From positions 1 to 36,577 of the forward strand of contig JACMPN010000336.1 of assembly GCA_014377495.1 (NCBI GenBank): 36,577 nt of DNA, in the 5' to 3' direction. This document shows positions 16,101 through 36,577 of the stretch, in pieces. Made by a program: the position numbers and the translations under genes. Under the pieces are notes generated by a model. That model had not been told where the DNA came from and did no database searches. It saw only the letters and a list, made by a program, of their open reading frames with translations. How positions within the stretch are numbered: the stretch's first letter is position 1; each line of letters starts with the position of its first letter. Origin of the DNA: Candidatus Sericytochromatia bacterium (GTDB taxonomy: Bacteria > Cyanobacteriota > Sericytochromatia > JACMPN01).

Positions 16101-17284
16101 CCCGGCCCTTGCGGCGCACGGTCCTGGCGTTGACCCTCTTGCTCGCCGGCTGCAGTGCCTTCGTCCCCCAGGGCGGTATCTCCGACGTGCGTGGTCGGGT
16201 GATGTCCCTGTCGCCTCCCAAGCCACTTGCGGGCATCCGCATCGTGGCGAAACAGGCCACGGCCGATACCTATACCGACAAGAACGGCGAGTTCCTCCTC
16301 AAGGATCTGCCGACCAACTGGCAGGACATCCGCGTGGACGTCGAGGGCTACCACCCGTTGGTCCGCCGCCTCAAGGTGGAACCGTACGGGACGAAGTACG
16401 TCGACTTCAGCCTCCAGGCCGCCGGCACGCCGTTGCCGAAACCGGAACTGCTGTTCGAGCGGAACGGTGAAATCTGGAACACGGACCGCCTCGGCATGCG
16501 GCAGACGCAACTGACCGGTGCCGACACCTGGCAGTGGCGGCAGCCGGTCTGGGCCCCGGATCACCGGCGCTGGGCCGTCCTCGGTATCAACCTGTCGCCG
16601 CGTGCGGCCGAACCGCCCGGCGTCTGGCTGAGTGACGGCGATGCCGGTCCTGTCCGCGTCGCCGCCCTGCCGGCCACCCCGTTGGGCCTGAGCTGGCGCG
16701 GCGGCCCGTTCCTCGTCTGCCTGGATGGCCCGGGGATGAATCAGGGGATGGGCCGCGGGACGATGCTGGCCATGGTCGAGCGCGGCAAGAACGTCCGTTT
16801 CCTGTCTCCCGGCAACGGCGAGGGGTTTCCCAACCTCTCCCCGGACGGCAAGCGCATCGCCTACACGGTCTATTCCGGCAACGTCGCCGATTACCTGGGC
16901 ACCAGCCGGCGCCCCCAGGGCCGGACGCAGATCGTCGTGGCGAACCACGGCGGGGCCAATGCCCGCGAGCTCACCGCCGAGGGCGACAACCTCGATCCCG
17001 CCTGGTCCCCGGACGGGCGCCAGATCGCCTTCATCTCCAACCGCGAGGGCGGGGCCGAGTTGTGGCTGATGGACGCCGACGGCACCAATCAGCGCCAAGT
17101 GACCTGGACACGCGCCAAACGGGCCAACAACCCCTGCTGGTCCCCGGACGGGAAGTCCATCGCCCTTAACACAAGCTTTAAGGAAACCTTTCCTTCCCCT
17201 CGGGCGAAATCCCTCTGGCAGGTGGCGCTGGCGACGGGCAATTTGGCCATGATATCCAATGACGCGGTGACGGCGTCGTGGTGA
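16097..17284 (+). CDS. Lipoprotein with carboxypeptidase-regulatory-like domain and TolB/PD40 beta-propeller repeats
   Basis: Lipobox LLLAGC; TDKNGEFLLKDLP; repeats PVWAPD, PNLSPDGKRIAY, PAWSPDGRQIAF and PCWSPDGKSIA. Confidence 0.85.
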   Translation: MTRPLRRTVLALTLLLAGCSAFVPQGGISDVRGRVMSLSPPKPLAGIRIVAKQATADTYTDKNGEFLLKDLPTNWQDIRVDVEGYHPLVRRLKVEPYGTKYVDFSLQAAGTPLPKPELLFERNGEIWNTDRLGMRQTQLTGADTWQWRQPVWAPDHRRWAVLGINLSPRAAEPPGVWLSDGDAGPVRVAALPATPLGLSWRGGPFLVCLDGPGMNQGMGRGTMLAMVERGKNVRFLSPGNGEGFPNLSPDGKRIAYTVYSGNVADYLGTSRRPQGRTQIVVANHGGANARELTAEGDNLDPAWSPDGRQIAFISNREGGAELWLMDADGTNQRQVTWTRAKRANNPCWSPDGKSIALNTSFKETFPSPRAKSLWQVALATGNLAMISNDAVTASW

Positions 17285-17332
17285 TGCGCGGGGCCTGATT
17301 TGTAAATGCCGTTTTAAATGTGTGTTGCGCAC

Positions 17333-17359
17333 GCAAGTTTGCGGGACGGTTTCCGATAA
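17333..17359 (+). promoter_or_regulatory. Sigma28 (FliA)-type promoter
   Basis: GCAAGTTT-N11-TCCGATAA versus consensus TAAAGTTT-N11-GCCGATAA (6/8 and 7/8 matches, exact spacing). Confidence 0.65.
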
Positions 17360-17425
17360 GACCGTGGGAGAGGTTAAGGTGGTTAACCACCGCTTCACCA
17401 AATAACCCGCCGTTGGGAGGACATC

Positions 17426-17749
17426 ATGAGCGTCAATTTCAATTCTTCATTTACCCCTGATATCAATACCGGCCGTGCCGCAGCCCCTGCTGCCGCCGCC
17501 GGAGCCGCCGCCGCCGCCAAGACCGCCACCACGGTCGGTGCAGCCGCCGCCAAGCCCCTGGACACCATCAGCTTTTCGGCTGCCAGCATGCAAGCAGCCT
17601 TCAGTGTCGAAACCCCCAAGAAGACCGAGACGGCCTCCGCCGACGAGGTCATTGCGACGGTGAGCAACAAGTTCGACCCCAAAGAGGTCTTCACGAACAT
17701 GGCAGCGAAGCTCGTGTCGGATTTCCGCACGGCCCCGGTCATCGTCTAA
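17426..17749 (+). CDS. Ala-rich 107-aa protein, possible divergent FlgM-like protein
   Basis: GGGAGG SD and strongly biased codons. Low-complexity N-terminus, DTISFS, and C-terminal FDPKEVFTNMAAKLV. Confidence 0.7.
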   Translation: MSVNFNSSFTPDINTGRAAAPAAAAGAAAAAKTATTVGAAAAKPLDTISFSAASMQAAFSVETPKKTETASADEVIATVSNKFDPKEVFTNMAAKLVSDFRTAPVIV

Positions 17750-17769
17750 AACAGGACGGTAAGGACGAC

Positions 17770-18147
17770 ATGACGACAATGAGCGCCTCTGAGATTGTGA
17801 TCGATCTCGATCAGCCGGACGACGTGCTGATCGGTCAGATTGCAGACATCTTGGCCAACGTGGAGCAATCGGTTAAAGCAGGTCGCGATGCGCAGCTGTC
17901 CTTCCGGTTACAGCGGTCGGGTGTAGACGAACGGCAGTTCACGCACACGTTGTCCGCCGATGCGTACCAACAGGCCGAACAGGACGTGGTCTTTCCCCTG
18001 GTGGTGAACGAAATCCTCCTGAAGGAGTTTCCGGCCAAGGTCGCCCAGAACGAGCAATTGCGACAGCATGTCATTGCCGAACTGAGGCAGGATCCATACT
18101 GGTCGAGCCAAGTCGTCGAACTCGTCAAAGCAATGAAGGCCCGATAA
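17770..18147 (+). CDS. Hypothetical helical protein
   Basis: TAAGGA SD; 125 aa; follows the previous gene by 20 nt. Confidence 0.75.
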   Translation: MTTMSASEIVIDLDQPDDVLIGQIADILANVEQSVKAGRDAQLSFRLQRSGVDERQFTHTLSADAYQQAEQDVVFPLVVNEILLKEFPAKVAQNEQLRQHVIAELRQDPYWSSQVVELVKAMKAR

Positions 18148-18166
18148 GCGGGCGTACGCAAATGAG

Positions 18167-18191
18167 ACCCGTCCAGGTATGGACGGGTTTT
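18167..18191 (+). terminator. Intrinsic terminator-like hairpin
   Basis: ACCCGTCCA-ggta-TGGACGGGT followed by TTT. Confidence 0.6.
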
Positions 18192-18238
18192 GGCGTGAGT
18201 AGGGACGGGGCGCCGTAAGGCCCTGGGGAGGCAGCACC

Positions 18239-18607
18239 ATGGAAATCCGCCAAGTCAATGTCTCTGACTCTGCCATGATGAAGCAGGAAGTCGCCAAGGA
18301 AACGAAGAAGGACGGCGGCAAGTCGGAAACGAACGCCAAGTCGACACCGACGACCGAACAGAACCTCTTCAACCGGCCCTACGGCGCAGACGGCACGACC
18401 CTGTCCAAGGGCGAGGCTTACAACCCGCTCTCGACCATTTTGCCCGAGAGCAAGATGGAAGAAGCCCGCCGCCGCCTCAAGGACGAAGACGACACCAAAA
18501 AGCGTAAGAAGAAAAAAGACGAGAAGAAGAAGCAGGGCAACAACTTCTGGTCGTGGCTGATGGGTGACAACGCCAGTACCGCCGGCGACCGTGACCCTGA
18601 CGAGTAG
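18239..18607 (+). CDS. Hypothetical charged, Lys-rich protein
   Basis: GGGGAGG SD and biased codons; contains KKRKKKKDEKKK and FWSWLMG. Confidence 0.8.
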   Translation: MEIRQVNVSDSAMMKQEVAKETKKDGGKSETNAKSTPTTEQNLFNRPYGADGTTLSKGEAYNPLSTILPESKMEEARRRLKDEDDTKKRKKKKDEKKKQGNNFWSWLMGDNASTAGDRDPDE

Positions 18608-18739
18608 CGGCGCTATTCAGGCCCACCTGCTTTGACGGCCCGATCCTCACGTCCCGACGGACGCGACGGACCGGGCCTTTGTCATTGATTCGCCTCCACG
18701 TTGTTTCGGACCGCGCATCTGGACCTGCCTAGCACCGCT
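18606..18739. repeat. Stop-codon-anchored rod palindrome, copy 1
   Basis: Outer stem AGCGGCGCTA/TAGCACCGCT; core GGCCCACCTGCTTTG (from 18620) and CGCATCTGGACC (18714-18725); 37-nt inner hairpin 32/37 identical to copy 2. Confidence 0.85.
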
Positions 18740-18999
18740 TGGACGCCGCCGGTCTCGACGGACCGACGGCGTACTCGGCTGACACACCGTCAACACTTGG
18801 ACAACACAGGTTGAATTTGCGTTAGAACCCTTGATGCGACGGCCTTGCGGTACCCGTGTCGCAAGGCAACCGCCACTGACACGGTTTACACTAAAGAGAT
18901 CACGTCGTCCCAGGCGTGTTCCCGCCCGTCAGCCGTCAGCGTCACCGCATGGCATGCCGCTGGCACCGCCCCCCGCATTCGCAGCCCTATGGAGCCACG

Positions 19000-19365
19000 A
19001 TGTCCACCCAATCAACCCCGCCGAGCGAGATCACCAATCCCGTCACAGCCCTCATCCTGTCCGCCGTCACCTGCAACCTGTACGAACTGTTCGTCTGGTG
19101 GCCCAACCGGCTGAAAACGATCAACGCGCTGTTGGGGCGTGACGAATTCAAGTACGGCACCATCCTGATGCTGTCGATCCTCACCTGCGGCCTGATGTAC
19201 ATCTACTACGACTACAAGACCGCAGAAGCGATCCTTGAGATCCGCCGCAAGAAGGGCTTGGCGGGTTCCGAGTCCCTGCCACTGATGACCGTCATCATGG
19301 ATTGCATGGCTCTGACCTTCATCACCAGCTACATGCACCAGGAAGAGATCAACAAGCTGGTATGA
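19000..19365 (+). CDS. DUF4234-like membrane protein
   Basis: Two similar hydrophobic motifs (ALILSAVTCNLY and LMLSILTCGLMY) and C-terminal HQEEINKL; GGAG SD before ATG 19000. Confidence 0.75.
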   Translation: MSTQSTPPSEITNPVTALILSAVTCNLYELFVWWPNRLKTINALLGRDEFKYGTILMLSILTCGLMYIYYDYKTAEAILEIRRKKGLAGSESLPLMTVIMDCMALTFITSYMHQEEINKLV

Positions 19366-19769
19366 GCCCCGGCTTCGCCAGATCCCGTTGGCTGCTGCCC
19401 GGCCTCCTGGTCGTTGCCGGCAGCACCCGTCTGGCGTTTCAACTCGCCCTCCACGCCGACTGGGCGGCACTCGACCATGGCCCTATCCTTTGCCTTTTCC
19501 GGGCCCTGACAGGCATTCCCTGTCCCGGATGCGGCATGACCAGGGCCATGATTGCGTTTGCGATGGGGGATTGGCATCGGGCAGCCGACTACAACCTGCT
19601 GGCCCTGCCCCTCTTCCTGACTGTGATCGCCCACAGCCTCATCCAATGGCTGCCCGCACCCATCCAGGCCCGATGGCAGACCCTGCTCACATCCCGCCGC
19701 CTGACGGGCACAGCCCTGGCCGTCATCACGGCGACCTGGCTCTGGACGCTCGGCCATCCGACGTTCTAA
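19362..19769 (+). CDS. DUF2752 family membrane protein
   Basis: CLFRALTGIPCPGCGMTRA...YNLL signature; ATGA overlap with the upstream gene. Confidence 0.88.
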   Translation: MSPGFARSRWLLPGLLVVAGSTRLAFQLALHADWAALDHGPILCLFRALTGIPCPGCGMTRAMIAFAMGDWHRAADYNLLALPLFLTVIAHSLIQWLPAPIQARWQTLLTSRRLTGTALAVITATWLWTLGHPTF

Positions 19770-19796
19770 ACGGGATCGCAAAGCAATCCCGCACTC

Positions 19797-19899
19797 AGGG
19801 ACGTCAGAGTGGTCCAGATGCGAAGAGACCCCGGCCCGTAGCGTCCGTCTGGACGTAAGGGTCGGGGTCTCAAAGCAGGTGGGCCGCTATGGCGTCCCT
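19797..19899. repeat. Stop-codon-anchored rod palindrome, copy 2
   Basis: Outer stem AGGGACGTCA/TGGCGTCCCT; core GGTCCAGATGCG (19811-19822) and CAAAGCAGGTGGGCC (19871-19885); abuts the sigma factor stop codon. Confidence 0.85.
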
Positions 19900-20901
19900 T
19901 TAGTCGTCGTGGAGATACTCGTCAAGGCGTTTCCGCATGCCGTGATGACGGAGCTTGCGCAACGCCTTGGCTTCAATCTGGCGGATCCGCTCCCGGGTGA
20001 CACCCATCTTGGTGCCGATCTCGGCCAAGCTGCGCGGGCGGTCGTCATAGAGACCGTAGCGCATGGTCAGGATCTCCTGCTCCCGGGTGGTGAGCACGGA
20101 CAGCACTTCGGCGATGTCCTCGGAAAGCATCTTGTGGGCGACCGTCCGGGTCGGGTGACCCGAGTACTCGTCCTCGATCAGATCGACCAGGCTGCGATCG
20201 TCGTCTGGACCGACCGGCGTGGCCAGCGAGACGGTGCGCTTGACGATCCGCTTCAGCTGGCGGATCTTCGCCACAGGCAGTTCGGCGGCGACGGCCAACT
20301 CTTCGTCGGTCGGATACCGGCCGAGATCAAAGGTCAACTGGCGGCGGATCTTCTTGAGACGCTGGATCGCTTCGGTGGCATGGACCGGCAACCGGATGTT
20401 CCGGCCTTTGTCAGCAATGGCCCGGGTGATCGCCTGGCGGATCCACCACGTCGCATACGTGCTGAAGCGGTAGCCCTTGGTGTAGTCGTACTTCTCAACA
20501 GCCCGGATCAGACCGGTGTTGCCTTCTTGGATCAGGTCGAGCAGCGGCAGGCCGAGGTCGCAATAGCGCTTGGCGATCGACACGACCAGCCGCAGGTTGG
20601 CGGTGATCAAGTGGTTCTTCGCCCGCTGGTCGCTCTGGGCGACCCGCTTGGCCAGTTCGATCTCGTCTTCGGCCGTCAGCAGCGGTGTCTTACCGATCGA
20701 GTTCAGATAGACCTGGATTGAGCTGATCTCGTCTTCGCGGGCGGGACGCAGGTTCTCCTCGTCGACGCTGAGCGTCTCGGACTCCATCTCGTCTTCTTCT
20801 TCAGCTGCCGGGGCCGCCGCAGGCGCCTCGGGCGTTTCTTCGACCACTTCTTCGACTTGGGTATCCATCACAGTAAGATCAAGTTTTTCAGACATCATCA
20901 T
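19900..20901 (-). CDS. RNA polymerase sigma70 factor, RpoD/RpoS-like (group 1 or 2)
   Basis: Region 1.2 [11 protein letters not shown]; region 2 [21 protein letters not shown] and [16 protein letters not shown]; region 4.2 [16 protein letters not shown]. Confidence 0.95.
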
Positions 20902-21107
20902 CGGTTCTTAAACCCCTCCCCATATGGCGGTTGCCTGGATCAGGTCCTTGCGCACCGAAAACTAAACTGCCGGTCTGCCGTAGCAGGGAACTTTCAGCAG
21001 TCCGTCGGTGACGGGTGGTTCCTTGTACCGGCTTTCGTGCCGGTATTTAATCCGTTCTTAACGAACTTCGGTCACCTTTAACAGAGCAACTCCGTTCGCA
21101 ACTCTCA

Positions 21108-21136
21108 ATGGTAGCGGTTACGCAGCCGGAAGTCAA
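21108..21136 (-). promoter_or_regulatory. Sigma70-type promoter of the sigma factor gene
   Basis: Minus strand TTGACT-N17-TACCAT, implying a leader of about 200 nt. Confidence 0.7.
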
Positions 21137-21363
21137 GCTGAGCACGCTGCCTTGCCGTTATATAGCCACACTGCACCATGACCCTATCGCTTAACATTCC
21201 GATAAAAAATTCCCCTCTTTTTTCCTAACCTGATTATGCCGAGATTAAGGCGGGGCGGCCAAACGATGACGATCAGGCGGCTCTGGCGCTCACCCTTGGG
21301 ACGGGCTGGCCAAACAAAGGGGGCACAATCGGCCCAAACGGGGCCTAATTTGGAGATTGTCGG

Positions 21364-21392
21364 TTGACGCTCAGTAGGGCGTTTGCTATAAA
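21364..21392 (+). promoter_or_regulatory. Sigma70-type promoter of the tRNA-tuf operon
   Basis: TTGACG-N17-TATAAA with TG extension, 12 nt before the first tRNA. Confidence 0.85.
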
Positions 21393-21404
21393 TCCACCGG
21401 GTTG

Positions 21405-21480
21405 GCCGACGTAGCTCAATTGGCAGAGCAGCAGTTTTGTAAACTGCCGGTTGCGGGTTCGAGTCCCATCGTCGGCTCCA
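21405..21480 (+). tRNA. tRNA-Thr(TGT)
   Basis: Acceptor GCCGACG/CGTCGGC; anticodon arm GCAGT-TTTGTAA-ACTGC; TTCGA loop; encoded CCA. Confidence 0.95.
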
Positions 21481-21496
21481 AGCCCAACAGACTCTT

Positions 21497-21579
21497 GGGG
21501 AGATGGCCGAGTGGTTAATGGCAGCAGACTGTAAATCTGCCCTCTCACGAGTACGAAGGTTCGAATCCTTCTCTCCCCA
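21497..21579 (+). tRNA. tRNA-Tyr(GTA)
   Basis: Acceptor GGGGAGA/TCTCCCC; anticodon arm GCAGA-CTGTAAA-TCTGC; long variable arm; CCA not encoded. Confidence 0.95.
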
Positions 21580-21592
21580 AACCGGTAAACAT

Positions 21593-21665
21593 GCCCAGAT
21601 AGCTCAGTTGGTAGAGCACGTCCTTGGTAAGGACGAGGTCACGGGTTCGAGTCCCGTTCTGGGCT
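21593..21665 (+). tRNA. tRNA-Thr(GGT)
   Basis: Acceptor GCCCAGA/TCTGGGC; anticodon arm CGTCC-TTGGTAA-GGACG; CCA not encoded. Confidence 0.95.
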
Positions 21666-21791
21666 TTTCCCTATGCTCCGGATTTCCGGAGTAACCGGAT
21701 CGGCCTGCGGCCCAGCCGCGTGGTTTCGAGACAGAGTCGGTTTTTCTCGGGATATGACTATTGCGTTGTGTTGTAAGGACGAATAGGCACC

Positions 21792-23009
21792 ATGGCGAGA
21801 CAGAAATTTGAGCGCAACAAGACCCACGTCAACGTGGGCACCATCGGCCACGTTGACCACGGCAAGACGACTTTGACCGCAGCCATCACCATGACGCTCG
21901 CCGCCATGGGTCAAGCGACGATCCGCAAATACGACGAGATCGATGCCGCTCCGGAAGAAAAAGCCCGTGGCATCACGATCAACACGGCTCACGTCGAATA
22001 CGAGACGGTCAAACGGCATTATGCCCACGTCGACTGCCCCGGACACGCTGACTACGTGAAGAACATGATCACCGGTGCCGCCCAGATGGACGGCGCCATC
22101 CTGGTTTGCTCGGCCGCTGACGGCCCCATGCCTCAGACCCGGGAGCACATCCTGCTCGCCCGTCAGGTCGGCGTGCCGAACCTGGTTGTCTTCCTGAACA
22201 AGGCCGACATGGTCGACGACGCCGAATTGTTGGAACTCGTTGAGATGGAAGTCCGCGACCTCCTCAACTCCTACAAGTTTGAAGGCGACGTCATCCCCTT
22301 CATCTCCGGCTCGGCCCTCAAGGCCTGCGAACAGATGACGGCGAACCCCAAGACCCTGCGTGGCGAGAATGAATGGACTGACAAGATCTGGGCCCTGATG
22401 GATGCTGTCGACAGCTACATCCCCGATCCCGTCCGTGACATCGACAAGCCGTTCCTGATGGCCGTCGAAGATGTCTTCTCCATCACGGGTCGTGGCACGG
22501 TGGCCACTGGCCGGATCGAGCGTGGCAAAGTCCGCATCCAGGACGAAATCGAAATCATCGGTCTGCGCGACACCATCAAGGCGATCGTCACCGGCGTCGA
22601 GATGTTCCGCAAACTGCTCGACGAGGGCATGGCCGGCGACAACGTGGGCGTCCTGCTCCGTGGCGTCGACAAGACGATGATCGAGCGTGGACAGGTTCTG
22701 GCCAAGGCCGGTTCCATCAAGCCGCACACCAAGTTCACCTCCGAGGTTTACGTGCTCAGCAAGGAAGAGGGCGGTCGTCATACCCCGTTCTTCGCCGGCT
22801 ATCGCCCGCAGTTCTATGTGCGGACCACCGATGTGACCGGCAGCATCACGTTGCCCGAAGGCGTCGAGATGGTTATGCCCGGTGACAACATCCAGATGGT
22901 CATCGAACTGATCCATCCGGTGGCCATCGAGGAAGGCATGCGTTTTGCCATCCGTGAGGGTGGACGTACTGTCGGTGCCGGCGTCGTCGCCACCATCATC
23001 AAGGAATAA
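21792..23009 (+). CDS. tuf: Elongation factor Tu
   Basis: Motifs [27 protein letters not shown] and [13 protein letters not shown]. Confidence 0.99.
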
Positions 23010-23021
23010 GCAACGGATCTG

Positions 23022-23047
23022 AGGGGCGGCGAAAGCCGCCCCTTTTT
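23022..23047 (+). terminator. Intrinsic terminator after tuf
   Basis: AGGGGCGGC-GAAA-GCCGCCCCT followed by TTTT. Confidence 0.85.
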
Positions 23048-23082
23048 CAGTCTGTGGCTTTTCTCAGCAAAGGCGGACTTCC

Positions 23083-23442
23083 ATGTTGATGCCCGGCTAC
23101 GGTCCTCTGGTGATCATGCTCATCTTTGCGGTGCTCGTGCCCGTCTCCGCCCTGGTGATCAGCCGCATCCTCCAACCCCGGCATGCCACCCCCGTCAAAT
23201 ACACCACCTACGAGTGCGGCGTCGAACCGGTCGGCGGCGCCTGGGTGCAATACACCGTCCGCTACTACCTCTTCGCCCTGGTCTTTCTGATCTTCGACAT
23301 CGAGACGGTGTTCCTCTATCCCTGGGCCGTGGCCTTCCGCCAACTGGGCAGCTTCGCCGTCCTCGAGATGTTCCTGTTCCTGACGATTCTCATCCTCGGA
23401 CTCATTTACGCGTGGCGCAAAGGAGATCTCGAGTGGGTATGA
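23083..23442 (+). CDS. nuoA: NADH-quinone oxidoreductase subunit A (NdhC)
   Basis: Motifs YECGVEP, FLIFDIETVFLYPWAV and YAWRKGDLEW. Confidence 0.96.
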   Translation: MLMPGYGPLVIMLIFAVLVPVSALVISRILQPRHATPVKYTTYECGVEPVGGAWVQYTVRYYLFALVFLIFDIETVFLYPWAVAFRQLGSFAVLEMFLFLTILILGLIYAWRKGDLEWV

Positions 23443-23559
23443 AGGCGGCTGTTCCAAGTTCTTTGCCGACCTGATGAGACGGTTCCGGCATTTTGACGCT
23501 CGTTCAGCAGTAGAGTGGAGTGGGATCACCGGTTTTCACACCTGCGGTTAGGGGGAACG

Positions 23560-24096
23560 ATGGCCACCAGCATGAATGCCCTGGATCGACTCAACGAGGC
23601 GGACCGCGACGAACTCGATCGCAGCCTGCTGATCACTACCATCGATGAGGCCTACAACTGGGCCAAGGCCTCCTCCATCTGGCCCCTGACCTTTGCCACC
23701 GCCTGCTGTGGCATCGAGATGATCTCCGTGACCACCCCACGGTACGACCTTGCCCGTTTCGGCTCTGAGGTCTTCCGGGCCACGCCCCGTCAGGCCGACC
23801 TGATGATCACCGCCGGGACAATCACCAAGAAGATGGCCCCGGCCATGGTCACCCTCTTCGAACAGATGCCCGAGCCCAAATACGTCATTGCCATGGGCAA
23901 CTGCGTCATCCAGGGCGGTATCTTCAAGAACTGCTATTCCGTCCTCGACGGCGTCGACCAGGTTCTGCCCGTCGATATCTACCTGCCCGGATGTCCGCCC
24001 CGCCCTGAGGCGCTGATGGATGCGCTGATCAAGCTCAAGGCCAAGATCCGTCGCGAAGAATCCATCCTCACCCGTTCCGAGAGACTCCGCCGATGA
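23560..24096 (+). CDS. nuoB: NADH-quinone oxidoreductase subunit B (NdhK)
   Basis: Motifs ACCGIEM, PRQADLM and PGCPPRPE. Start reassigned to ATG 23560. Confidence 0.96.
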   Translation: MATSMNALDRLNEADRDELDRSLLITTIDEAYNWAKASSIWPLTFATACCGIEMISVTTPRYDLARFGSEVFRATPRQADLMITAGTITKKMAPAMVTLFEQMPEPKYVIAMGNCVIQGGIFKNCYSVLDGVDQVLPVDIYLPGCPPRPEALMDALIKLKAKIRREESILTRSERLRR

Positions 24097-24605
24097 GCAC
24101 CATCGCCAAGAAAATCATGCCGGTCGCCAATACCGAGGCGCTGGTGGCCAAATTTCCGGAGACCACCGTCGTCGCCCCCGATGCCAACACCATCGTCACG
24201 GTGGAGATCCACGCTGATCGCTTGCCGGCCGTCGTCCAGTACCTGCGGGACGATGAGGGCTACGGCTACATGCCGAACATCGCCTCGGTCGACTACCTCG
24301 AAACCCAGCAACTGGGCATGATCTACCACCTCTATCGGCTTAGCGACGGCAGCCGCCTCGCCATCCGCGTCAAGGTGCCCCGGGATGCCCCCGTCGTGCC
24401 CTCCATCGCCCACCTGTTCGCTGCGGCGAACTGGAACGAACGGGAAGCCTTTGACCTGATGGGCATCGTCTTTAGCGGCCATCCCAACCTCAAACGGCTG
24501 CTCATGCCCGACGACTGGATCGGCCATCCCCTGCGCAAAGACTACGTGCAGGAACAGTACGAGCTGCCCTGCGCCTTCTTTGACAAAAAGACCACCTGGG
24601 TCTAA
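24093..24605 (+). CDS. nuoC: NADH-quinone oxidoreductase subunit C (NdhJ)
   Basis: ANWNEREAFDLMGIVFSGHPNLKRLLMPDDWIGHPLRKDY. Confidence 0.96.
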   Translation: MSTIAKKIMPVANTEALVAKFPETTVVAPDANTIVTVEIHADRLPAVVQYLRDDEGYGYMPNIASVDYLETQQLGMIYHLYRLSDGSRLAIRVKVPRDAPVVPSIAHLFAAANWNEREAFDLMGIVFSGHPNLKRLLMPDDWIGHPLRKDYVQEQYELPCAFFDKKTTWV

Positions 24606-24661
24606 GCCGGACCGACCATCGCTCCCCACCAAAGCCGGTGGATCTAGCAGGAAAAACGCCC

Positions 24662-25768
24662 ATGATCGAGTTCAAAACCGAAGAGATGACCATCAACATG
24701 GGGCCCAACCACCCCAGTACCCACGGGGTGTTGCGGCTCATCCTCAAACTGGACGGCGAAATCGTCAAGGACTGCGAGCCGGTCATCGGCTACCTGCACC
24801 GCTCCATCGAACGCTCCGGGCAGGACCTCACCTACTACCAGTTCATCCCCGTCCTCGATCGCTTCGACTACCTGAGCAATATTTTCTCCGAGTACGTCTA
24901 CGTCCTCGCTGTCGAAAAGGTCGCCGGCATCGAGTGCCCCGTCCGGGCCGACTTCATCCGGGTCCTGACCATGGAGATCAACCGGATCACGTCGCACCTG
25001 TTCTGGCTCGGCACGTTCGTCCTCGATCTCGGGGCGACCAGCATCATCATGTACACGATGCGGGAACGGGAACTGCTCTTCGATCTCCTGGAAGAGCTGA
25101 CCGGCCAGCGGATGATGTACAACTACATCCGCATCGGCGGCGTCAACCACGACCTGCCCCCGGGCTGGACCGACCGCCTGCGGGACTTTCTGAAAAACTT
25201 CCGCAACCGCATCGATGAATACGAATCCATCGTCACCGACAACCCGATCTTCCGGGCCCGGGTGGAGAACATCGGTGTCCTCAAGCTGGACCGGCTCATG
25301 TCCTATGGCGTCACCGGCCCCACCCTGCGAGCCTCTGGCATGGCCTACGACCTCCGGCGGGATGAACCCTACTCCGTCTACGACCAGCTGGACTTTGACA
25401 TCCCGACCGGCAAAAACGGGGACAGCCTCGACCGCTACCGGGTCCGCCTGCAGGAAATGCGTGAGTCGGCAAAAATCCTCGAACAGGCCCTGGCCATGAT
25501 CCCCGAGGGGCACGTCAAAGCCCGCAAGATCCCCGCCCTGTACAAGGCTCCGCCCGGTGAAGCCTACGTGCAAATCGAGGCGCCACGGGGCAACATGGGC
25601 TGTTACTATATCTCCGATGGCAGCACACGGCCGGCCCGGGTCAAGCTGCGGGGCGCCAGCTTCCACAATCTGGCCATCCTGCCTGAAGCGATCAAAGGGT
25701 CACCCATCTCCGACATCATGGCCATATTCGGCAGCATGGATGTCATCATCCCCGAAGTCGACCGTTAG
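24662..25768 (+). CDS. nuoD: NADH-quinone oxidoreductase subunit D (NdhH)
   Basis: NMGPNHPSTHGVLRL, GYLHR, EAPRG and C-terminal EVDR; no NiFe CxxC motifs. Confidence 0.96.
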   Translation: MIEFKTEEMTINMGPNHPSTHGVLRLILKLDGEIVKDCEPVIGYLHRSIERSGQDLTYYQFIPVLDRFDYLSNIFSEYVYVLAVEKVAGIECPVRADFIRVLTMEINRITSHLFWLGTFVLDLGATSIIMYTMRERELLFDLLEELTGQRMMYNYIRIGGVNHDLPPGWTDRLRDFLKNFRNRIDEYESIVTDNPIFRARVENIGVLKLDRLMSYGVTGPTLRASGMAYDLRRDEPYSVYDQLDFDIPTGKNGDSLDRYRVRLQEMRESAKILEQALAMIPEGHVKARKIPALYKAPPGEAYVQIEAPRGNMGCYYISDGSTRPARVKLRGASFHNLAILPEAIKGSPISDIMAIFGSMDVIIPEVDR

Positions 25769-25851
25769 AAAGGGTTGAGCACCGTCATGACGCCCCTCAC
25801 CACCTTTTTAAACCGGTTGCACATCGTTCACGCCACGATGCGGGTCGCCGC

Positions 25852-26898
25852 GTGCTGACCGGCGGCGAGTTCATGCAATTCCTCAGCGTCCTCGGTGGCG
25901 CCTTGGCCCTGACGGGCTTCATTTTGACGGTCGTCATCGTGCTCATCTGGCTGGAGCGCCGGCTGATCGGCCTCTTTCAGATCCGGCTCGGGCCGAACCG
26001 GGTCGGTCCCGGCGGCATCCTCCAACCTGTCGCCGATGCGATCAAAGTCCTGCTCAAGGAAGACATCATCCCCGCCCAGGCCGACAAGGTCCTCTTCAAC
26101 ATCGCCCCTGTGCTGATGTTCATCCCGGGTCTCGTCATCTGGGGGACCATCCCGTTCGCCAAAGGGTGGGTCGTCGCCGATATCCGGGTGGGCCTCTTTT
26201 TCGCCATCGCCTGCGGCGCCCTGACGAGCCTGGCCATCCTTATGGCCGGATGGGCCTCCAACAACAAGTACGCCCTCATCGGCGGCCTGCGCTCCACCGC
26301 CCAGGCGATCAGCTATGAGCTGCCGCTGATTTTGAGCACCCTCGGCGTCGTCATGTTCGCCGGAACGTTCAACCTGACGGAGATCGTCGAAAAACAACAC
26401 GTCTGGTACATTTTCCTGCAGCCGCTGGCCTTCATCATCTTCTTCATCTGCCAGCTGGCCGAAGTCAATCGCACGCCCTTTGACATCCCGGAAGCCGAAT
26501 CGGAACTCGTCGCCGGCTACAGCACCGAATACTCCGGCTTCAAATTCGCCCTGTTCTTCCTGGCCGAGTACGTGAACACCTTCACCATCGGGGCCCTCTG
26601 CGCCATCCTCTTCCTCGGCGGCTGGAAGTTCCCCTTCGCCGAGTCGCTGGGTTTGGCTCAGTACCTGAACGAAACCCAGTGGCTGGGACCGATTCCGCTG
26701 CCGCTGCCAGTCTTCTGGTTCCTCGGCAAGGTGTTCGCTGTCTTTGCCCTCATCGTCTGGATCCGGGCCACCGTGCCCCGCCTGCGGGCCGATCAGCTGA
26801 TGGCCTTCGCCTGGAAGTTCCTCGTGCCGCTGGCCCTCCTCAACGTGTTTCTCACCGGGCTGCTGGTGCCCCTCTTCGTCCGCTGGAATTGGATTTAA
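25852..26898 (+). CDS. nuoH: NADH-quinone oxidoreductase subunit H (NdhA)
   Basis: Motifs RLGPNRVGP, ADAIKVLLKE, RTPFDIPEAESELVAGY and PRLRADQLM. Start could also be ATG 25873. Confidence 0.96.
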   Translation: MLTGGEFMQFLSVLGGALALTGFILTVVIVLIWLERRLIGLFQIRLGPNRVGPGGILQPVADAIKVLLKEDIIPAQADKVLFNIAPVLMFIPGLVIWGTIPFAKGWVVADIRVGLFFAIACGALTSLAILMAGWASNNKYALIGGLRSTAQAISYELPLILSTLGVVMFAGTFNLTEIVEKQHVWYIFLQPLAFIIFFICQLAEVNRTPFDIPEAESELVAGYSTEYSGFKFALFFLAEYVNTFTIGALCAILFLGGWKFPFAESLGLAQYLNETQWLGPIPLPLPVFWFLGKVFAVFALIVWIRATVPRLRADQLMAFAWKFLVPLALLNVFLTGLLVPLFVRWNWI

Positions 26899-26911
26899 GG
26901 AAGGCCCGGCC

Positions 26912-27826
26912 ATGCCCAACGTCCTCGTCCAAACCGTGCAAGGCACCAGAGCCATCCTCAAGGGGATGGGTGTGGTGTTCCAGAACCTGTTCCGGCAACC
27001 GTTCACCATCGAGTATCCCGAGGTGCGCCGCCCGGCACCACCCCGCACCCGCAACCGCCTGGCTTTCCTCTTCGACGACGAGAGCGAAAAAATGCGGTGC
27101 ATCGGTTGCACCAGCTGTGTCGTCGTCTGCCCGCGGGAAATCATCCACCTCAAGGTGGAAACGGTCGACAAGAAAAAAGTCGTCGTTCAATTCGACGTCG
27201 ATCTCGGCGACTGCATCGGCTGCGGCAACTGTGTCGAGATCTGCCCCGTCGACGCCCTCGAGCTGTTACCTGACTTCGAGCTGGCCGCCGAGCGTAAGGA
27301 AGACCTCCTCTACGACATGCACAAGATGGGCAAGTTCGTCCAAAAGGGCTATCTCCCCGCTCAGTTCTATCCCGCCAAGTCTGAACCGCCCAAGCCGATC
27401 AGCAAGAACGCGGCGCCCAAGCCGATCGCGCCGCCGGCCGACGGGACCGCCGTCGTTACGGCCGTCGATCCTGCTACGCTATCGCCTGAAGATCAGAAGG
27501 CCGCAGCCTGGATCAGGACCGAAGAACTTAAAGCCGCACGCGAAGCCGCCAAAGCCACAGCCGAGGCGGGTGGCGCCACAACGGAACCGGCCGTCGGTAC
27601 TGCCGAACCCATCGAACTGACGCCTGAGGAAATCAAAGAAGCCGGTCGCCGCAAGGCAGCCGAGCTGAAAGCGGCTCGCGAAGCAATCAAGGCGGAGGCG
27701 GTTGAGGCGGAGGCCGCCAAGGCCGCAGGTCCCACTGCGGGAACTTCCGAGGCCCCTGCACCGTACAAGACAGATGCCGCAGCGCCGCCATCCGACATCC
27801 ATCCTGATCCCAGCCCGGGAGGCTAG
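26912..27826 (+). CDS. nuoI: NADH-quinone oxidoreductase subunit I (NdhI) with long C-terminal extension
   Basis: Two 4Fe-4S motifs, CIGCTSCVVVCP and CIGCGNCVEICP, then a tail of about 150 aa rich in Ala/Glu/Pro/Lys. Confidence 0.93.
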   Translation: MPNVLVQTVQGTRAILKGMGVVFQNLFRQPFTIEYPEVRRPAPPRTRNRLAFLFDDESEKMRCIGCTSCVVVCPREIIHLKVETVDKKKVVVQFDVDLGDCIGCGNCVEICPVDALELLPDFELAAERKEDLLYDMHKMGKFVQKGYLPAQFYPAKSEPPKPISKNAAPKPIAPPADGTAVVTAVDPATLSPEDQKAAAWIRTEELKAAREAAKATAEAGGATTEPAVGTAEPIELTPEEIKEAGRRKAAELKAAREAIKAEAVEAEAAKAAGPTAGTSEAPAPYKTDAAAPPSDIHPDPSPGG

Positions 27827-27837
27827 ACCCAGCAACC

Positions 27838-28365
27838 ATGGAAACCGCCGCTGCCCATACGACGACCTATGCAGTCCTGCTGCAAAACCTCGCCTTTTAC
27901 ACCCTGGCCTCCTTCAGCGTCCTCAGCGCCGCCGGCATGTTGCTCGTACGCAACCTGATCCACAGCGCCTACCTGCTGGTCCTGACATTTCTGTCGGTCG
28001 CCGGCACGTTCTTTTTATTGAATGCCGAATTCCTCGGGGTCGCCCAGATCCTCATCTACGCCTCCGCTGTGGCGATCATGATGATCTTCGGCCTGATGTT
28101 GACCAACAAGCCGGCCGCCCCGATGCCGAACCATGGCATCCTGTTCCGCTACATTGCCATGGCCATCGGCATCGGGATCTTCTCCTACGCCTGCCGCCTG
28201 GCCCTCATCGCCCCCTGGGTGACGAGCACGCCTGTCCTTGTCGATACGCCCGTCGTCATCGGCAGAGCCTTTTTCAATGAGTTCCTGCTGCCTTTCGAGG
28301 TCGCCGCCGTTCTACTCCTGATGGCGCTCGTCGGGGCGCTGTCCGTGGCGCGTAAGGAGGCCTAA
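27838..28365 (+). CDS. nuoJ: NADH-quinone oxidoreductase subunit J (NdhG)
   Basis: Motifs NLIHSA, LNAEFLGVAQILIY and LPFEVAAVLLL. Confidence 0.93.
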   Translation: METAAAHTTTYAVLLQNLAFYTLASFSVLSAAGMLLVRNLIHSAYLLVLTFLSVAGTFFLLNAEFLGVAQILIYASAVAIMMIFGLMLTNKPAAPMPNHGILFRYIAMAIGIGIFSYACRLALIAPWVTSTPVLVDTPVVIGRAFFNEFLLPFEVAAVLLLMALVGALSVARKEA

Positions 28366-28680
28366 ATGATTGCCGTCGGCCTTAACCATTTCTTGTTCCT
28401 GGGCACTGCGCTTTTTTGCCTGGGCCTCTGGGGCGTGATCACCAGTCGCCATGCGATCCGGGTCCTGATGAGTATTGAGCTGATGCTCAACGCCGTGAAC
28501 ATCAACCTCGTCGCCTTCAACAACTACGTCACGCCGGCCAGGGGGCGCGGACAGGTCTTTGCGCTGTTCGTCATGGCTGTGGCCGCCGCCGAAGCGGGGG
28601 TCGCCCTGGCGATCATCCTCAACCTGTACACGAACTTCCGCGACGTCGACATGAACCAAATCAACCTGATGAAGTGGTAG
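28366..28680 (+). CDS. nuoK: NADH-quinone oxidoreductase subunit K (NdhE)
   Basis: Motifs LMSIELMLNAVNINLVAF and AAAEAGVALA. Confidence 0.95.
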   Translation: MIAVGLNHFLFLGTALFCLGLWGVITSRHAIRVLMSIELMLNAVNINLVAFNNYVTPARGRGQVFALFVMAVAAAEAGVALAIILNLYTNFRDVDMNQINLMKW

Positions 28681-28690
28681 GGATCCGTCC

Positions 28691-30586
28691 ATGAGTTTCG
28701 CCTTGACCCAGGTGTGGTGGGTGGCCCTGCTGCCCGGCCTGGCCGCCGTCATCATCGCCCTGTTCACCCGCCAGCAGCGACAGATCTCCGCCGCCCTGGC
28801 CCTCGCCAGCACCGGCTTGTCTTTCCTGATGTCCCTCGCCATCATGAGCGCCGCCTTCACCGGTGGCCAGAGTGCCCTGTCGACGACGTTCGGGGCCTAC
28901 CGCTGGACGACCGTCGGCAGCCAGTCCCTCTACGTCGCCTGGGGCTTGACCCCCCTGTCCGCCCTGATGCTGGTCGTCGTCACCCTGGTCAGTGGCCTCG
29001 TGCAGGTCTACTCCCTCGCCTATATGAAGGACGAAGCACCCCGGGCCTTCAGCCGCTACTATGGCGCTTTGGCCCTGTTCACCTTTTCGATGCTGGCCCT
29101 AGTCATCGCCGACAACCTGCTGATGATCTTCGCCGGCTGGGAACTCGTCGGTGTCAGCTCGTTCCTGCTCATCGGGTTCTGGTTCAAAAAGCCGGCAGCG
29201 GCCAAAGCCGCCAACAAAGCCTTCCTGGTCAACCGTATCGGCGATCTGGGCATGCTCGTCGGCATCCTGCTGCTCTACAGCTACACCCATGAGCTGGGCT
29301 TCGGGGCCAATGTCCAGGCCATCGCCAAAGGCGTCATCCCGGCCACGACGCTGGGCGTGATCATGTTTCTGCTCTTCTGGGGCCCGATCGGCAAATCCGC
29401 CCAGGTGCCCCTGCACGTCTGGCTGCCGGACGCCATGGAAGGCCCCACCCCCGTTTCCGCCCTGATCCATGCCGCGACCATGGTCGCCGCCGGCGTCTAC
29501 TTTGTCGGGCGGCTCTTCGAAATGTTCGTCCTCGCCCCGGCCATGGTCCTGAACATCGTCGCCGGTGTCGGGGCCCTGACGGCCGTCCTGGCCGCCGCCA
29601 TCGCCCTGGTGCAGACCGACATCAAGAAGGTGCTGGCCTACTCGACCGTCAGCCAGCTCGGCTTCATGATGCTGGCCCTCGGCATGGGCCCGGTTGGCTA
29701 CAAGGCCGGTCTGTTCCACCTGTTCACCCACGCCTTTTTCAAAGCGCTGCTCTTCCTCGGGGCCGGCTCGGTCATTCATGCCGTGCACACCCAGGACATC
29801 CGCGAGATGGGCGGGCTGAAAGCCGCCATGCCGCTGACCCGGATCACCTTTTTGATTGGCACGCTGAGCATCACGGGCCTGCCGTTCCTCACGGCCGGGT
29901 TCTGGAGCAAAGAGGCGATCTTCCACGCCACGTGGGCTCACAACCCCGGCATCTTCGCCCTTGCCGTCGTCGCCGCCACGATGACCGCCTTTTACATGTT
30001 CCGCCTGTACTTCCTCACCTTCGAGGGCAGCTACCGTGGCCACGCCCACCCGCATGAGTCCCCGACGCTGATGACGGCACCGCTGCTCATCCTCGCCGTG
30101 CCCTCGATCGCCGCCGGCTGGCTCGACACGGGGATGTTCGGCCATGCCATCGACCGGTTCCTGGCCTATGGCGGCGTCGGCGCCGAGCAGGTCCATGCCA
30201 CGGCCGGCATGGACTGGCCGCTGGTCGCCCTGAGTGCGGCGATCTTCGCTGTCGGTACGGGTCTGGCCTACGCCATCTATATCCGCAAGACCGTCGATGC
30301 CGCCGGCTGGGCCAAGGACTGGCCCGGCCTGCACGACATGCTGAGCCACAAGTTTTACATCGACGAGGCCTATGCCACGTTCGTTGATCGGGTGGTCTTG
30401 GGCTGGGCCTCGGTGGCGGCAATGCTGGACCGCTACGTCGTCGACGGCCTCGTCAACGGTATCGCCATGGGCACCGTCGCCGGCGGCGAGGGCCTGAAAC
30501 TGCTGCAGACGGGCCGGGTACAGACCTACGCCCTCATCGCGACGACGAGCCTCTTCGTCATCGTGTGGATTTTGACCCGGATCTAA
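28691..30586 (+). CDS. nuoL: NADH-quinone oxidoreductase subunit L (NdhF)
   Basis: Motifs WELVGVSSFLLIGFW, GKSAQVPLHVWLPDAMEGPTPVSALIHAATMV and FHLFTHAFFKALLFL. Confidence 0.96.
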   Translation: MSFALTQVWWVALLPGLAAVIIALFTRQQRQISAALALASTGLSFLMSLAIMSAAFTGGQSALSTTFGAYRWTTVGSQSLYVAWGLTPLSALMLVVVTLVSGLVQVYSLAYMKDEAPRAFSRYYGALALFTFSMLALVIADNLLMIFAGWELVGVSSFLLIGFWFKKPAAAKAANKAFLVNRIGDLGMLVGILLLYSYTHELGFGANVQAIAKGVIPATTLGVIMFLLFWGPIGKSAQVPLHVWLPDAMEGPTPVSALIHAATMVAAGVYFVGRLFEMFVLAPAMVLNIVAGVGALTAVLAAAIALVQTDIKKVLAYSTVSQLGFMMLALGMGPVGYKAGLFHLFTHAFFKALLFLGAGSVIHAVHTQDIREMGGLKAAMPLTRITFLIGTLSITGLPFLTAGFWSKEAIFHATWAHNPGIFALAVVAATMTAFYMFRLYFLTFEGSYRGHAHPHESPTLMTAPLLILAVPSIAAGWLDTGMFGHAIDRFLAYGGVGAEQVHATAGMDWPLVALSAAIFAVGTGLAYAIYIRKTVDAAGWAKDWPGLHDMLSHKFYIDEAYATFVDRVVLGWASVAAMLDRYVVDGLVNGIAMGTVAGGEGLKLLQTGRVQTYALIATTSLFVIVWILTRI

Positions 30587-30597
30587 AGGCGAAAACG

Positions 30598-32103: not shown

Positions 32104-32105
32104 CT

Positions 32106-33668: not shown

Positions 33669-33769
33669 GCGTCACGGCGGTGGATGGGTGGGGCAACGGT
33701 GTTTATTTCAGGCATGAAATCGCCAAGAATCGGGTATAAGACGGGTATCACGACAGAGGATGGCCCGCC

Positions 33770-35326: not shown

Positions 35327-35368
35327 ATCGATCCGGCAGGTGATTGCCGGATCTCACGCCTCAGCATG

Positions 35369-35405: not shown

Positions 35406-35423
35406 GTTGTGCACAGTGGAACG

Positions 35424-35534
35424 GATTGACGGGTCGTGGGGTCCCAGATGCGTAGTGGGCAGGGGCCGACTGGTACCGGAAGGTACCCGAGGCCCCTGCC
35501 CACATAGCAGGTGGGGCCTCACGGCCCGCCAATC
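35424..35534. repeat. Stop-codon-anchored rod palindrome, copy 3
   Basis: Outer stem GATTGACGGGTCGTG/CACGGCCCGCCAATC; core GGTCCCAGATGCG (from 35440) and CATAGCAGGTGGGGCC (to 35518); perfect 13-bp inner stem; apical GGTACC-GGAA-GGTACC. Touches the nfuA stop. Confidence 0.85.
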
Positions 35535-36085
35535 TAGCCGGCGATGACGGTGAGGCGTGGATCCACGTCCGTCTGCAGGAGGTGTCCGATCCCGCGCATG
35601 GTCCCGGCGGCGGCCCTGGGGCACCTGCCGCAAGCGCCCTGGTAGCGGATCTTCAGGGTGAAGCCGTCGAGACCGATGACTTCGAGGCCGCCACCGTCAC
35701 CGGCCAGCGCCGGGCGGATGCGGTTGTTGAGGATGTCCTGGATCTTGTCATACAGGACATCGCCCGTGGGGCCGCCCTCAGGTGAGGCCGAAGCCGTCGT
35801 CGTGGCATCGGCCGTCACGTTGTCGGCTTCGGCTTCGATGACAGGCTTGATCTCGGGGATGACAGCATCCCAGACGAGTTGGGAGTCCTTGGTGACGGTG
35901 ACGAACTCGGGGGTGTAGAACACCGACTGCACGAAGCCCAGGGCAAACAGGGCTTTAGCCAGCGGATCCTGCTCGGCCTTGGCCGCATCATCGAACTGCC
36001 GGACGCCACTGATCGGCAGTGCTTCCATCAAAACGAACTTCAGGGCATCGGGGTTCGGCGTCATTTCCGTATGGCGGATTTTCAT
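35534..36085 (-). CDS. nfuA: Nfu/NifU-type Fe-S cluster carrier (Nfu_N plus NifU C domain)
   Basis: TPNPDALKF, PLAKALF, FVTVTK; IRPALAGDGG and YQGACGRCP (CxxC); GGAGG SD. Confidence 0.9.
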   Translation of the reverse strand: MKIRHTEMTPNPDALKFVLMEALPISGVRQFDDAAKAEQDPLAKALFALGFVQSVFYTPEFVTVTKDSQLVWDAVIPEIKPVIEAEADNVTADATTTASASPEGGPTGDVLYDKIQDILNNRIRPALAGDGGGLEVIGLDGFTLKIRYQGACGRCPRAAAGTMRGIGHLLQTDVDPRLTVIAG

Positions 36086-36480
36086 CGTCAACCGTCCTCC
36101 GCAGGCAACATGGGCCTGCTTGTCTTTGTCACTATCGTCGGGCTTCCGACAGGACGTGGGTTGCGCCCACCGATCGGAAACTTGAGCAAACTGGTTATAT
36201 TATCTCACAGTCAGGCGCGGGCGAACCGACCGCAGCACTGAATGTCAGCTGAGGGGCCAGACCTGCCCCCAAGATCCCTGCCGCGGCTTCAGGTGGAAGC
36301 TCATGGAATCCCAGGCCGGGAGATGTGGCCGGTGCCCAGGTCGGTGAGGTGGTCCAGCCGTTAGGATGAGCCGGACGACCTGGGTCGAGCACCGGGAGAC
36401 CTGCACTGCGTTCCGGTAAGGCTGAAGCTACCTTAGGAGGGCTCGACGCAGCGGATAGGCCGCCCTCGCCGACCGTGTCG

Positions 36481-36576: not shown

Positions 36577-36577
36577 A

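Follow-up and report, generated by a model that had tools for sequence, protein, structure and literature searches.

Hairpin repeats that fold on the antisense strand and abut stop codons in a Candidatus Sericytochromatia genome

The question raised by the stretch of DNA analyzed here, a 36,577-nt contig of a Candidatus Sericytochromatia bacterium (JACMPN010000336.1; called the window below), is why a long hairpin placed at the very end of a gene should fold best on the strand that does not appear in that gene's mRNA. The hairpin is a rod-like inverted repeat at 19797..19899 (copy 2), with arms at 19797-19840 and 19856-19899, and it lies against the stop codon of a sigma-70 family gene. The initial annotation had described this rod together with two others in the window (copies 1 and 3), and had suggested that the rods are biased to fold on the strand antisense to the adjacent gene, the functional molecule being either an antisense RNA or bottom-strand single-stranded DNA. 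The inverted repeat is present where it had been placed, and the best reading is that the rod is a copy of a lineage-specific element that belongs to a previously uncatalogued family.

Computed folds bear out the asymmetry in all three window copies, with RNA and with DNA parameters alike. The better-folding strand of each rod hairpin is called its good strand in what follows. With RNA parameters, the good and opposite strands come to -80.0 and -59.5 kcal/mol for copy 2, -91.1 and -79.9 for copy 3, and -75.6 and -54.4 for copy 1; with DNA parameters the corresponding values are -39.4 and -28.5, -45.7 and -41.3, and -34.9 and -24.2 kcal/mol (copies 1 and 3 were located by means of the shared core CCAGATGCG ... 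AGCAGGTGGG). No shuffled sequence matched the native fold on either strand of the window copies with RNA parameters. With DNA parameters, 12 of 200 shuffles of the copy 1 opposite strand fold at least as well as the native sequence, and this opposite strand is therefore barely above chance. The minimum-energy folds of the good strands contain 13 G-U pairs between them (5, 5 and 3 in copies 2, 3 and 1), compared with 0, 0 and 1 on the opposite strands; the latter have 11 A-C 1x1 mismatches (4, 4 and 3), very close to the 12 or so A-C mismatches and one G-U pair that had been estimated for the mRNA-sense strand. The internal loops claimed for copies 2 and 3 also appear in the computed folds, namely GA/GG, UGC/GCA and GAA/AAA in copy 2, and a GUA/AUA loop in place of GAA/AAA in copy 3, together with the GGAA tetraloop of the latter.

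The same bias is found throughout a large family. The genome (5.32 Mb in 686 contigs, 64% G+C, 95% complete) gave 47 matches with E <= 1 to a covariance model built from the three copies, some of these being both strands of one place, and a sequence-only hidden Markov model (HMM; a 107-nt model) seeded from the covariance-model matches was used to orient the copies. The rod family occupies 124 places in this genome, each matched by the HMM on one strand only, and 97 of the copies are full length. At 17 of the 124 places a contig end is no more than 150 nt away; assembly has thus probably been interrupted by the repeat, and the number of copies should be taken as a minimum. Among the full-length copies, 96 of 97 fold better on the HMM strand with RNA parameters (mean -69.7 versus -54.6 kcal/mol) and 94 of 97 do so with DNA parameters, so the bias is kept in the larger copy set. 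The palindrome extends about 10 nt past the model on each side (mode 10; 9-11 nt in 61 of the 97 copies and at least 6 nt in 82), giving a median length of 127 nt (interquartile range 126-129) and ends of the form (A)AGRGG ... CCYCT(T), as seen in the flank listing and in a 62-copy alignment. The window copies belong to a subfamily shorter than this median.

The hairpin structure is maintained by covariation. In the 62-copy alignment, which was used for the pair statistics, RNAalifold predicts 44 pairs, and 42 of them show two-sided compensatory changes. Standard pairs make up 92.4% of 2714 cells, versus 64.1 +/- 0.6% in shuffles (none of 500 reaches 92.4%), and pairing falls to 38-49% (at most 48.7%) when the partners are slid by 1-3 columns. 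The cells divide into 2213 Watson-Crick, 296 G-U, 49 A-C and 156 other combinations. G-U exceeds A-C in each of the 62 copies and also within the hypervariable outer helix (107 versus 37 cells), and several G-U positions are common to the whole family. The arms were also compared in 54 ungapped copies, using the 89 pairs of copies that have at least 85% identity over the central ~63 nt. In these pairs the outer ~30 nt of each arm are only ~30-50% identical, yet they are complementary within each copy, and the outer stems stay hypervariable even when the cores are 85-99% identical. Along the helix, short hypervariable covarying blocks alternate with conserved blocks (e.g., GTCC/GGGC, CGTC/GGCG and CCCT/AGGG). 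Judged from the sequences, the family may be read as an old population of element lineages in which a few blocks and the pairing itself are constrained while the rest of the helix drifts.

The rods have a fixed relation to genes. Gene calls were made with a self-trained codon-usage caller and are rough, with some genes missed (for example, 19302-19769). In 83 of the 90 copies with a called gene on the 3' side, that gene is encoded on the opposite strand and ends toward the rod. Rods between co-directional genes are antisense in 40 cases and sense in 2, and an additional 34 rods lie between convergent genes and 4 between divergent genes. A call-free test took the 81 copies with a clear outer stem and considered any open reading frame (ORF) of 60 codons or more whose coding score was positive. 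An opposite-strand, coding-scoring ORF ends -20 to +30 nt from the 3' edge in 54 of these copies; the palindrome edge is in or at the stop codon in 30 of the 54 (offsets -2 to +1), and the stop is inside the palindrome in most of the remaining 24. A same-strand gene ends near the 5' edge in only 4 copies, and in none of them is it flush. The flush-site stops consist of 15 TAA, 10 TAG and 5 TGA, while the 3727 genes of the genome end in TAA (29%), TAG (29%) or TGA (42%). Rods occur on at least 100 contigs, singly, after housekeeping genes, including those for sigma-70, NifU/Nfu, a succinate dehydrogenase membrane subunit, an aminotransferase, HisRS, NDK, an aromatic amino acid lyase, thioredoxin and a DksA-like protein.

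This anchoring can be followed base by base in the window. Copy 2 has its 3' end at 19899, and TTA, the complement of the sigma-70 TAA, occupies 19900-19902. Copy 3 overlaps the stop by one base, its last nucleotide being the C that opens CTA (35534-35536), which is complementary to the NifU/Nfu TAG, and the palindrome of copy 1 begins at the A of the TAG (18605-18607) that ends the gene at 18239-18607. The mRNA of the sigma-70 gene would carry the A-C-mismatched version of copy 2. The claim that copy 2 folds on the strand antisense to the adjacent gene is thus correct for the gene that abuts it, but "adjacent gene" is ambiguous here, in that the DUF2752 gene 28 nt upstream is sense to the good strand. 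The related argument, that the bias is unlike that of a terminator or mRNA-stabilizing hairpin of the abutting gene, is sound: the good strand is the antisense strand of that gene.

The strand bias keeps the orientation of the element in all gene contexts. The number of G-U pairs on the model strand versus the opposite strand is 207 versus 37 in the convergent context, 211 versus 57 between tandem genes with an antisense rod, and 43 versus 10 where the gene on the 3' side shares the strand of the rod (7 copies). The bias is a property of the element, not of local transcription, and because it is also tied to the stop-abutting gene, it argues for selection on a single-stranded form of the antisense strand. 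One might suppose, instead, that no selection on folding is involved, and that strand-asymmetric deamination during transcription or replication simply converts G-C into G-T pairs; the orientation of the rod is, after all, tied to the transcription direction of the abutting gene. However, transcription-associated C-to-T changes hit the non-template (sense) strand, and deamination there would put G-U pairs into the mRNA, the opposite of what is observed. The 7 copies in the exceptional gene arrangement are biased along the element as well, several of the G-U positions recur across the whole family, and there is no relation to GC skew, all of which makes a mutational origin very unlikely.

Selection might also act on the mRNA version of the rod. 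A terminating ribosome must melt a hairpin that is flush with the stop codon, and possibly only those insertions survive that put the weaker strand into the mRNA. The rod does start within the stretch covered by the terminating ribosome, and its mRNA version is ~15 kcal/mol weaker on average. Hairpins of the REP (repetitive extragenic palindrome) type within ~15 nt of E. coli stop codons reportedly stall ribosomes and lower expression, as Liang and Deutscher are said to have found in 2015. Nonetheless, the mRNA version still folds with ~-55 kcal/mol, so that a very sharp filter would be needed to generate the ratio of 40 antisense to 2 sense rods. Such a filter leaves unexplained the origin of the asymmetry of the element, the bias in copies that are away from stop codons, and the exact placement on the stop, and it is an unlikely source of the pattern.

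Comparison with a related organism reveals that the element moves. An apical-motif scan of metagenome contigs detected 23 loci, with 20 in a single assembly; the flanking genes in that assembly are 70-89% identical to those of the genome analyzed here, arguing that it represents a related organism. All 18 delimitable rods of this relative fold better on the model strand, and 10 rods have an opposite-strand ORF that ends at the 3' edge, five of them at offsets -1 to 0. When the 20 loci of the relative with an alignable flank were located in the genome analyzed here, 2 had family matches, 1 fell at contig ends, and 17 were empty. The element therefore moves, and its turnover is fast relative to the divergence of the two organisms. 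At the gene end that bears the relative's L090, C408:1082-1185 is a rod of a different subfamily, which suggests independent insertions at one preferred site, and C65:5483-5534 is a truncated and decayed copy at another rod locus of the relative. In L088, also of the relative, 17 nt (CCTCAGCCCCGCTYCG) are duplicated in tandem at ~466-500, in the interval that separates rod and stop codon, and this displaces the rod from its flush position.

Other searches define where the family occurs. Contigs from the source sample that cover 17000-36577 bridge all three copies, and no joint that skips a rod was found among them. Model R1 produced one weak match only (E 4.6e-4) in 40 relatives, and model R2, for which up to 72 candidates were scored in each genome, matched nothing in 46 further genomes of this class. 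The apical-motif pattern gave three single matches, in unrelated organisms and taken as chance, among 185,579 species genomes, and no family match was found in plasmid and phage collections. With Rfam 15, only three tRNAs reach the gathering score in the window, and nothing has E < 1 over 18500-20000.

The favored explanation, held with a confidence somewhat short of even, is that the rod is a non-autonomous mobile hairpin that has been selected to fold as one DNA strand and that inserts in fixed orientation on stop codons. The element would propagate via a single-stranded form of one particular strand, most likely DNA, and the moving machinery would recognize a few conserved blocks and internal loops within the long hairpin. 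If only those lineages that pair on that strand continue to be copied, the stems would be free to covary, with G-T or G-U pairs tolerated on that strand and A-C mismatches purged. Insertion would be one-sided and oriented, placing the 3' end of the folding strand on the complement of the stop codon, so that the folding strand would run on directly into the gene's antisense strand. The mRNA would then contain the weaker, A-C-mismatched rod as a passenger in its 3' untranslated region (3' UTR). The family, its strand bias, the covariation, the anchoring and orientation at stop codons and the turnover between relatives are shown directly, whereas the DNA nature of the single strand, mobilization as the object of selection behind the bias, and the involvement of an enzyme are inferred. 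The existence of a mobile family with 124 places and high turnover shifts the odds in favor of a transposition intermediate over a set of ~100 individual antisense RNA genes. That every site should have an antisense gene of its own is also difficult to reconcile with the location of copy 3 behind a T-run hairpin, with the 40 copies between co-directional genes, and with the lack of promoter-like sites at the window copies.

The good strand could nevertheless function as RNA. Transcripts that enter the 3' end of a gene in antisense, whether by read-through of a convergent gene or from a neighboring promoter that fires divergently, would adopt the rod fold and be stopped or processed at the boundary. 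The rod could in this way insulate genes from antisense transcription, and the element would have spread because it is useful, or at least tolerated, at a gene boundary. The specific tolerance of G-U pairs and the conserved purine-rich internal loops are typical of structured RNA, and the rod is placed exactly at the gene boundary. For the 34 copies between convergent genes, read-through would make good-strand RNA; at copy 2, read-through from the DUF2752 gene, which has no evident terminator, is the sole evident source of such RNA. Di Nocera et al. (2013, PMC3733652) interpret the G-T pairs of REP stems as an indication that REPs act as RNA. On the other hand, no known transcript covers the good strand of the 40 copies between co-directional genes, and a consensus scan called no promoter-like or terminator-like site at the three window copies. 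The T-run hairpin before copy 3 should stop a convergent transcript, and no U-tract follows the rods, none of which is called terminator-like. The 17 of 20 sites that are empty in the comparison with the close relative are a poor fit to a needed gene-end signal. A function of the good strand as RNA is thus possible but rather doubtful.

Several findings weigh against the mobile DNA hairpin. The first favors the RNA function just described: about half of the copies have a tandem U-G/G-U at columns 29-30 with 107-108, and since tandem wobbles of this kind are favorable in RNA and unfavorable in DNA, this feature leans toward RNA. Second, rod orientation has no relation to the GC skew of the contig (27 versus 28), and so there is no support for a replication-strand mechanism, although the proxy is poor here: only 40% of called genes are on the G-rich strand of their contig, and with such C-rich coding strands the skew cannot serve to mark replication. 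Third, no mobilizing enzyme was found in the 95%-complete genome. Fourth, a short asymmetric T-R-R target alone does not explain why an in-frame stop is used over other spacer triplets. Finally, two filled and empty pairs have native sequence of the gene end within the gene-side outer arm, mirrored by its inverted complement in the far arm: in L104/C474 both sites share TTCGAG-TGA-GGC, and the far arm reads GCCTCACTC; in L107/C118 the empty site has TAG-CGGTGC natively, matched by GCACCG in the far arm. These two pairs suggest that the outermost ~10 bp may be an inverted copy of the target, generated for example by fold-back synthesis.

Counter to these native-sequence pairs, a gene-side arm brought by the element is suggested by the element-like composition of the post-stop sequence and by a family consensus. 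Past the stops of genes that bear a rod, the sequence is rich in G and T and poor in C, which is not the case at 3148 genes without rods, and the gene-side arm has the loose consensus AGRGG-KKGGT. The gene-side outer arm may therefore have been brought by the element, or else look-alike targets may be preferred. Inspection of flank listings and boundary logos by eye disclosed no direct target duplication at the ends, and likewise no TA, TTA or CTAG target.

The moving machinery of the proposed mobile hairpin was sought in the same genome, and no match was found to Y1/RAYT (PF01797), IS110 (PF01548) or TnpB (PF07282). Five genes match DDE_Tnp_1 (IS4/IS5-type; other transposase families were not searched), four of them on contigs without a family match, and the fifth, on C624, ~9 kb from the nearest rod. 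Three candidates of other kinds were rejected. DUF559 is represented by a single gene on C417, and that contig has no rod. The sole RVT_1 gene, and hence the only candidate reverse transcriptase, has a GIIM domain and lies within a group II intron (Table 1); of the two rods just upstream of the intron, one abuts a stop codon directly and the other precedes the tRNA gene. The genes between outward-facing pairs of rods are ordinary housekeeping genes.

The initial annotation had likened the rods to integron attC sites. Taken literally, an attC identity would mean that a tyrosine recombinase recombines the rods as folded bottom strands and that the upstream genes are cassettes. Like attC sites, the rods lie directly after an ORF stop, fold better as the bottom strand, and keep structure over a variable sequence. 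However, they lack the R and L boxes of attC (no R''/R' core boxes, i.e., no RYYYAAC/GTTRRRY, their ends being AGRGG...CCYCT), and their stems of 50-60 bp have symmetric loops and no extrahelical bases. No integron integrase reaches the cut-off in the genome, the best match to TIGR02249 scoring 52.3 bits versus a cut-off of 265. The rods form no arrays with cassette genes, but are single copies scattered after housekeeping genes such as those for sigma-70, NifU, HisRS, thioredoxin and HutH. The resemblance to attC therefore does not hold up, and it is extremely improbable that the rods are recombined in this manner; what survives of the functional molecule originally proposed is a single-stranded form of the antisense strand that is under selection.

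The features of the window, together with the group II intron mentioned above, are collected in Table 1. Copies 1 and 2 might be thought to form a composite transposon around the DUF4234 and DUF2752 genes, but this was rejected because each copy merely abuts the stop of an outer gene.

Table 1. Locations of rod copies, adjoining genes and associated features
Feature	Location	Strand	Remarks
Copy 1	about 18606-18739 (18609-18738 as folded)	- (good strand)	Rod hairpin
Copy 2	19797..19899	+	103-nt near-perfect rod hairpin of the short subfamily; 109.8 bits to covariance model R1
Copy 3	35424..35534	+	111-nt rod
Gene without Pfam match	18239..18607	+	122 aa; TAG abuts copy 1; coding score 35.7
Nested insertion	18681..18713	-	33 nt, in the 5' arm of copy 1, at an internal loop
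DUF2752 gene	19302..19769	+	Converges on copy 2
Sigma-70 family gene	19900..20901	-	TAA abuts copy 2
Non-palindromic 5' tail	35409..35423	+	GTGCACAGTGGAAC-like motif directly before copy 3
NifU/Nfu gene	35534..36091	-	TAG abuts copy 3
Group II intron	C193:5092-8712		Directly after a tRNA gene and a small hairpin; 518-aa ORF (RVT_1, GIIM) and Rfam D1-D4 matches

Two of these features accompany rods elsewhere as well. The ~33-nt module nested in copy 1 is GGTCCGAAACAACGTGGAGGCGAATCAA-like, and, from direct reading of the sequences, a homologous insert is mirrored in the opposite arm of C311:6516-6653; the module looks like a second, smaller mobile unit that targets rods. For the motif of the tail before copy 3, TGTGCACAGYGGMAC, 8 loose-pattern matches genome-wide, that tail included, are located 6-29 nt 5' of a rod, and all of them are oriented as the rod is. 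Upstream of copy 3, past the end of the dockerin/EF-hand repeat gene (33770-35326), a GC-rich hairpin followed by TTTGTTG (35369-35411) has the look of an intrinsic terminator for both directions, but it was not among the sites called by the consensus scan. Elsewhere in the window, three tRNA genes (21405-21665) are followed by tuf, encoding EF-Tu (21792-23009), resembling the usual tRNA-tuf arrangement.

How do the rods compare with known systems? As far as the available portions of the published accounts go, REP and REPIN elements with RAYT (Bertels and Rainey 2011, PMC3116915; Di Nocera et al. 2013, PMC3733652) are, like the rods, high-copy, extragenic and non-autonomous hairpins located mostly after genes. 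The same accounts describe G-T pairs as common in REP stems and GTAG termini as often supplying TAG stops (Di Nocera et al. 2013, PMC3733652), and the rods likewise have G-T stem pairs, termini that can supply or overlap stops, and a proposed single-stranded intermediate. This REP description is the nearest one encountered in the literature searched, but in the portion available it is without continuous ~127-nt hairpins and reports neither a fixed orientation nor the anchoring of one end to a stop (PMC3733652). The rods also differ from REPs and REPINs in that no RAYT gene was found in the 95%-complete genome, that each rod is one continuous hairpin (median 127 nt) with no doublet of 20-40-nt REP units tagged GTAG or CGTC, and that a GTAG starting the palindrome, or at least falling in its first 8 nt, is seen in no more than 7 of 82 copies.

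Palindromic miniature inverted-repeat transposable elements (MITEs), such as ERIC/IRU, the Neisseria Correia/NEMIS elements, RUP and YPAL, have conserved terminal inverted repeats and TA-like direct target duplications. They share with the rods a length of ~100-160 nt, an end-to-end fold, an intergenic location, co-transcription with neighboring genes and a large number of copies. However, rods with cores that are at least 85% identical have an outer-stem identity of ~0.3-0.5, inspection of the flanks disclosed no direct duplication, and one end is anchored to a stop codon.

The IS200/IS605 elements (IS608, ISDra2) cause no target duplication, insert in a strand- and orientation-specific manner at a motif at one end, rely on hairpin recognition and have one active strand. 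By analogy, the rods resemble this single-strand transposition in their lack of a target duplication, their oriented, one-sided insertion and their one apparently active strand. Unlike IS200/IS605, they come with no TnpA (Y1) or TnpB gene in the genome searched, the whole element is one hairpin rather than two subterminal hairpins, the motif is 3' of the folding strand, and there is no lagging-strand signal, at least by the poor proxy of GC skew. Intrinsic terminators are also different: the stems of the rods are 50-60 bp, the flanks are not T-rich on either strand, and none was called at the window copies. In contrast to the msr-msd of retrons, no retron-type reverse transcriptase lies beside the hairpin, the only RVT_1 gene being that of the group II intron. 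The rods thus appear to work most like single-strand-mobilized hairpin elements, yet they lack defining features of each family.

A broader proposal, which is more tentative than the mobile hairpin itself, is that the rods belong to an undescribed class of prokaryotic elements. These would be hairpins of ~105-135 nt that home after stop codons in fixed orientation, with the antisense single strand read or moved by machinery outside the known transposase families, possibly a host function. No description of stop-codon-anchored, antisense-folding hairpin repeats was found within the full texts and terms searched. If stop-codon anchoring, the lack of a direct target duplication, and stems that covary about a few conserved blocks prove to be common to such a class, a new mechanism of insertion would be indicated, or else a new gene-boundary signal on the antisense strand.

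If the mobile hairpin is correctly identified, mobile hairpins would sit at a sizeable share of this organism's gene ends, positioned in relation to the stop and active as the strand opposite the mRNA. None of the biology of REP/REPIN elements, MITEs, attC sites or terminators predicts that combination. Through the asymmetry between G-U and A-C, together with the covariation, selection on a single-stranded nucleic acid would be open to direct reading from genome sequence. The mobile hairpin also raises the questions of what recognizes the stop-codon context on DNA and what moves the element without a matching transposase. For the host, the rods add strong 3' UTR structure to the mRNAs of sigma-70, NifU, thioredoxin, HisRS and HutH, and they may affect translation termination, mRNA decay and antisense transcription.

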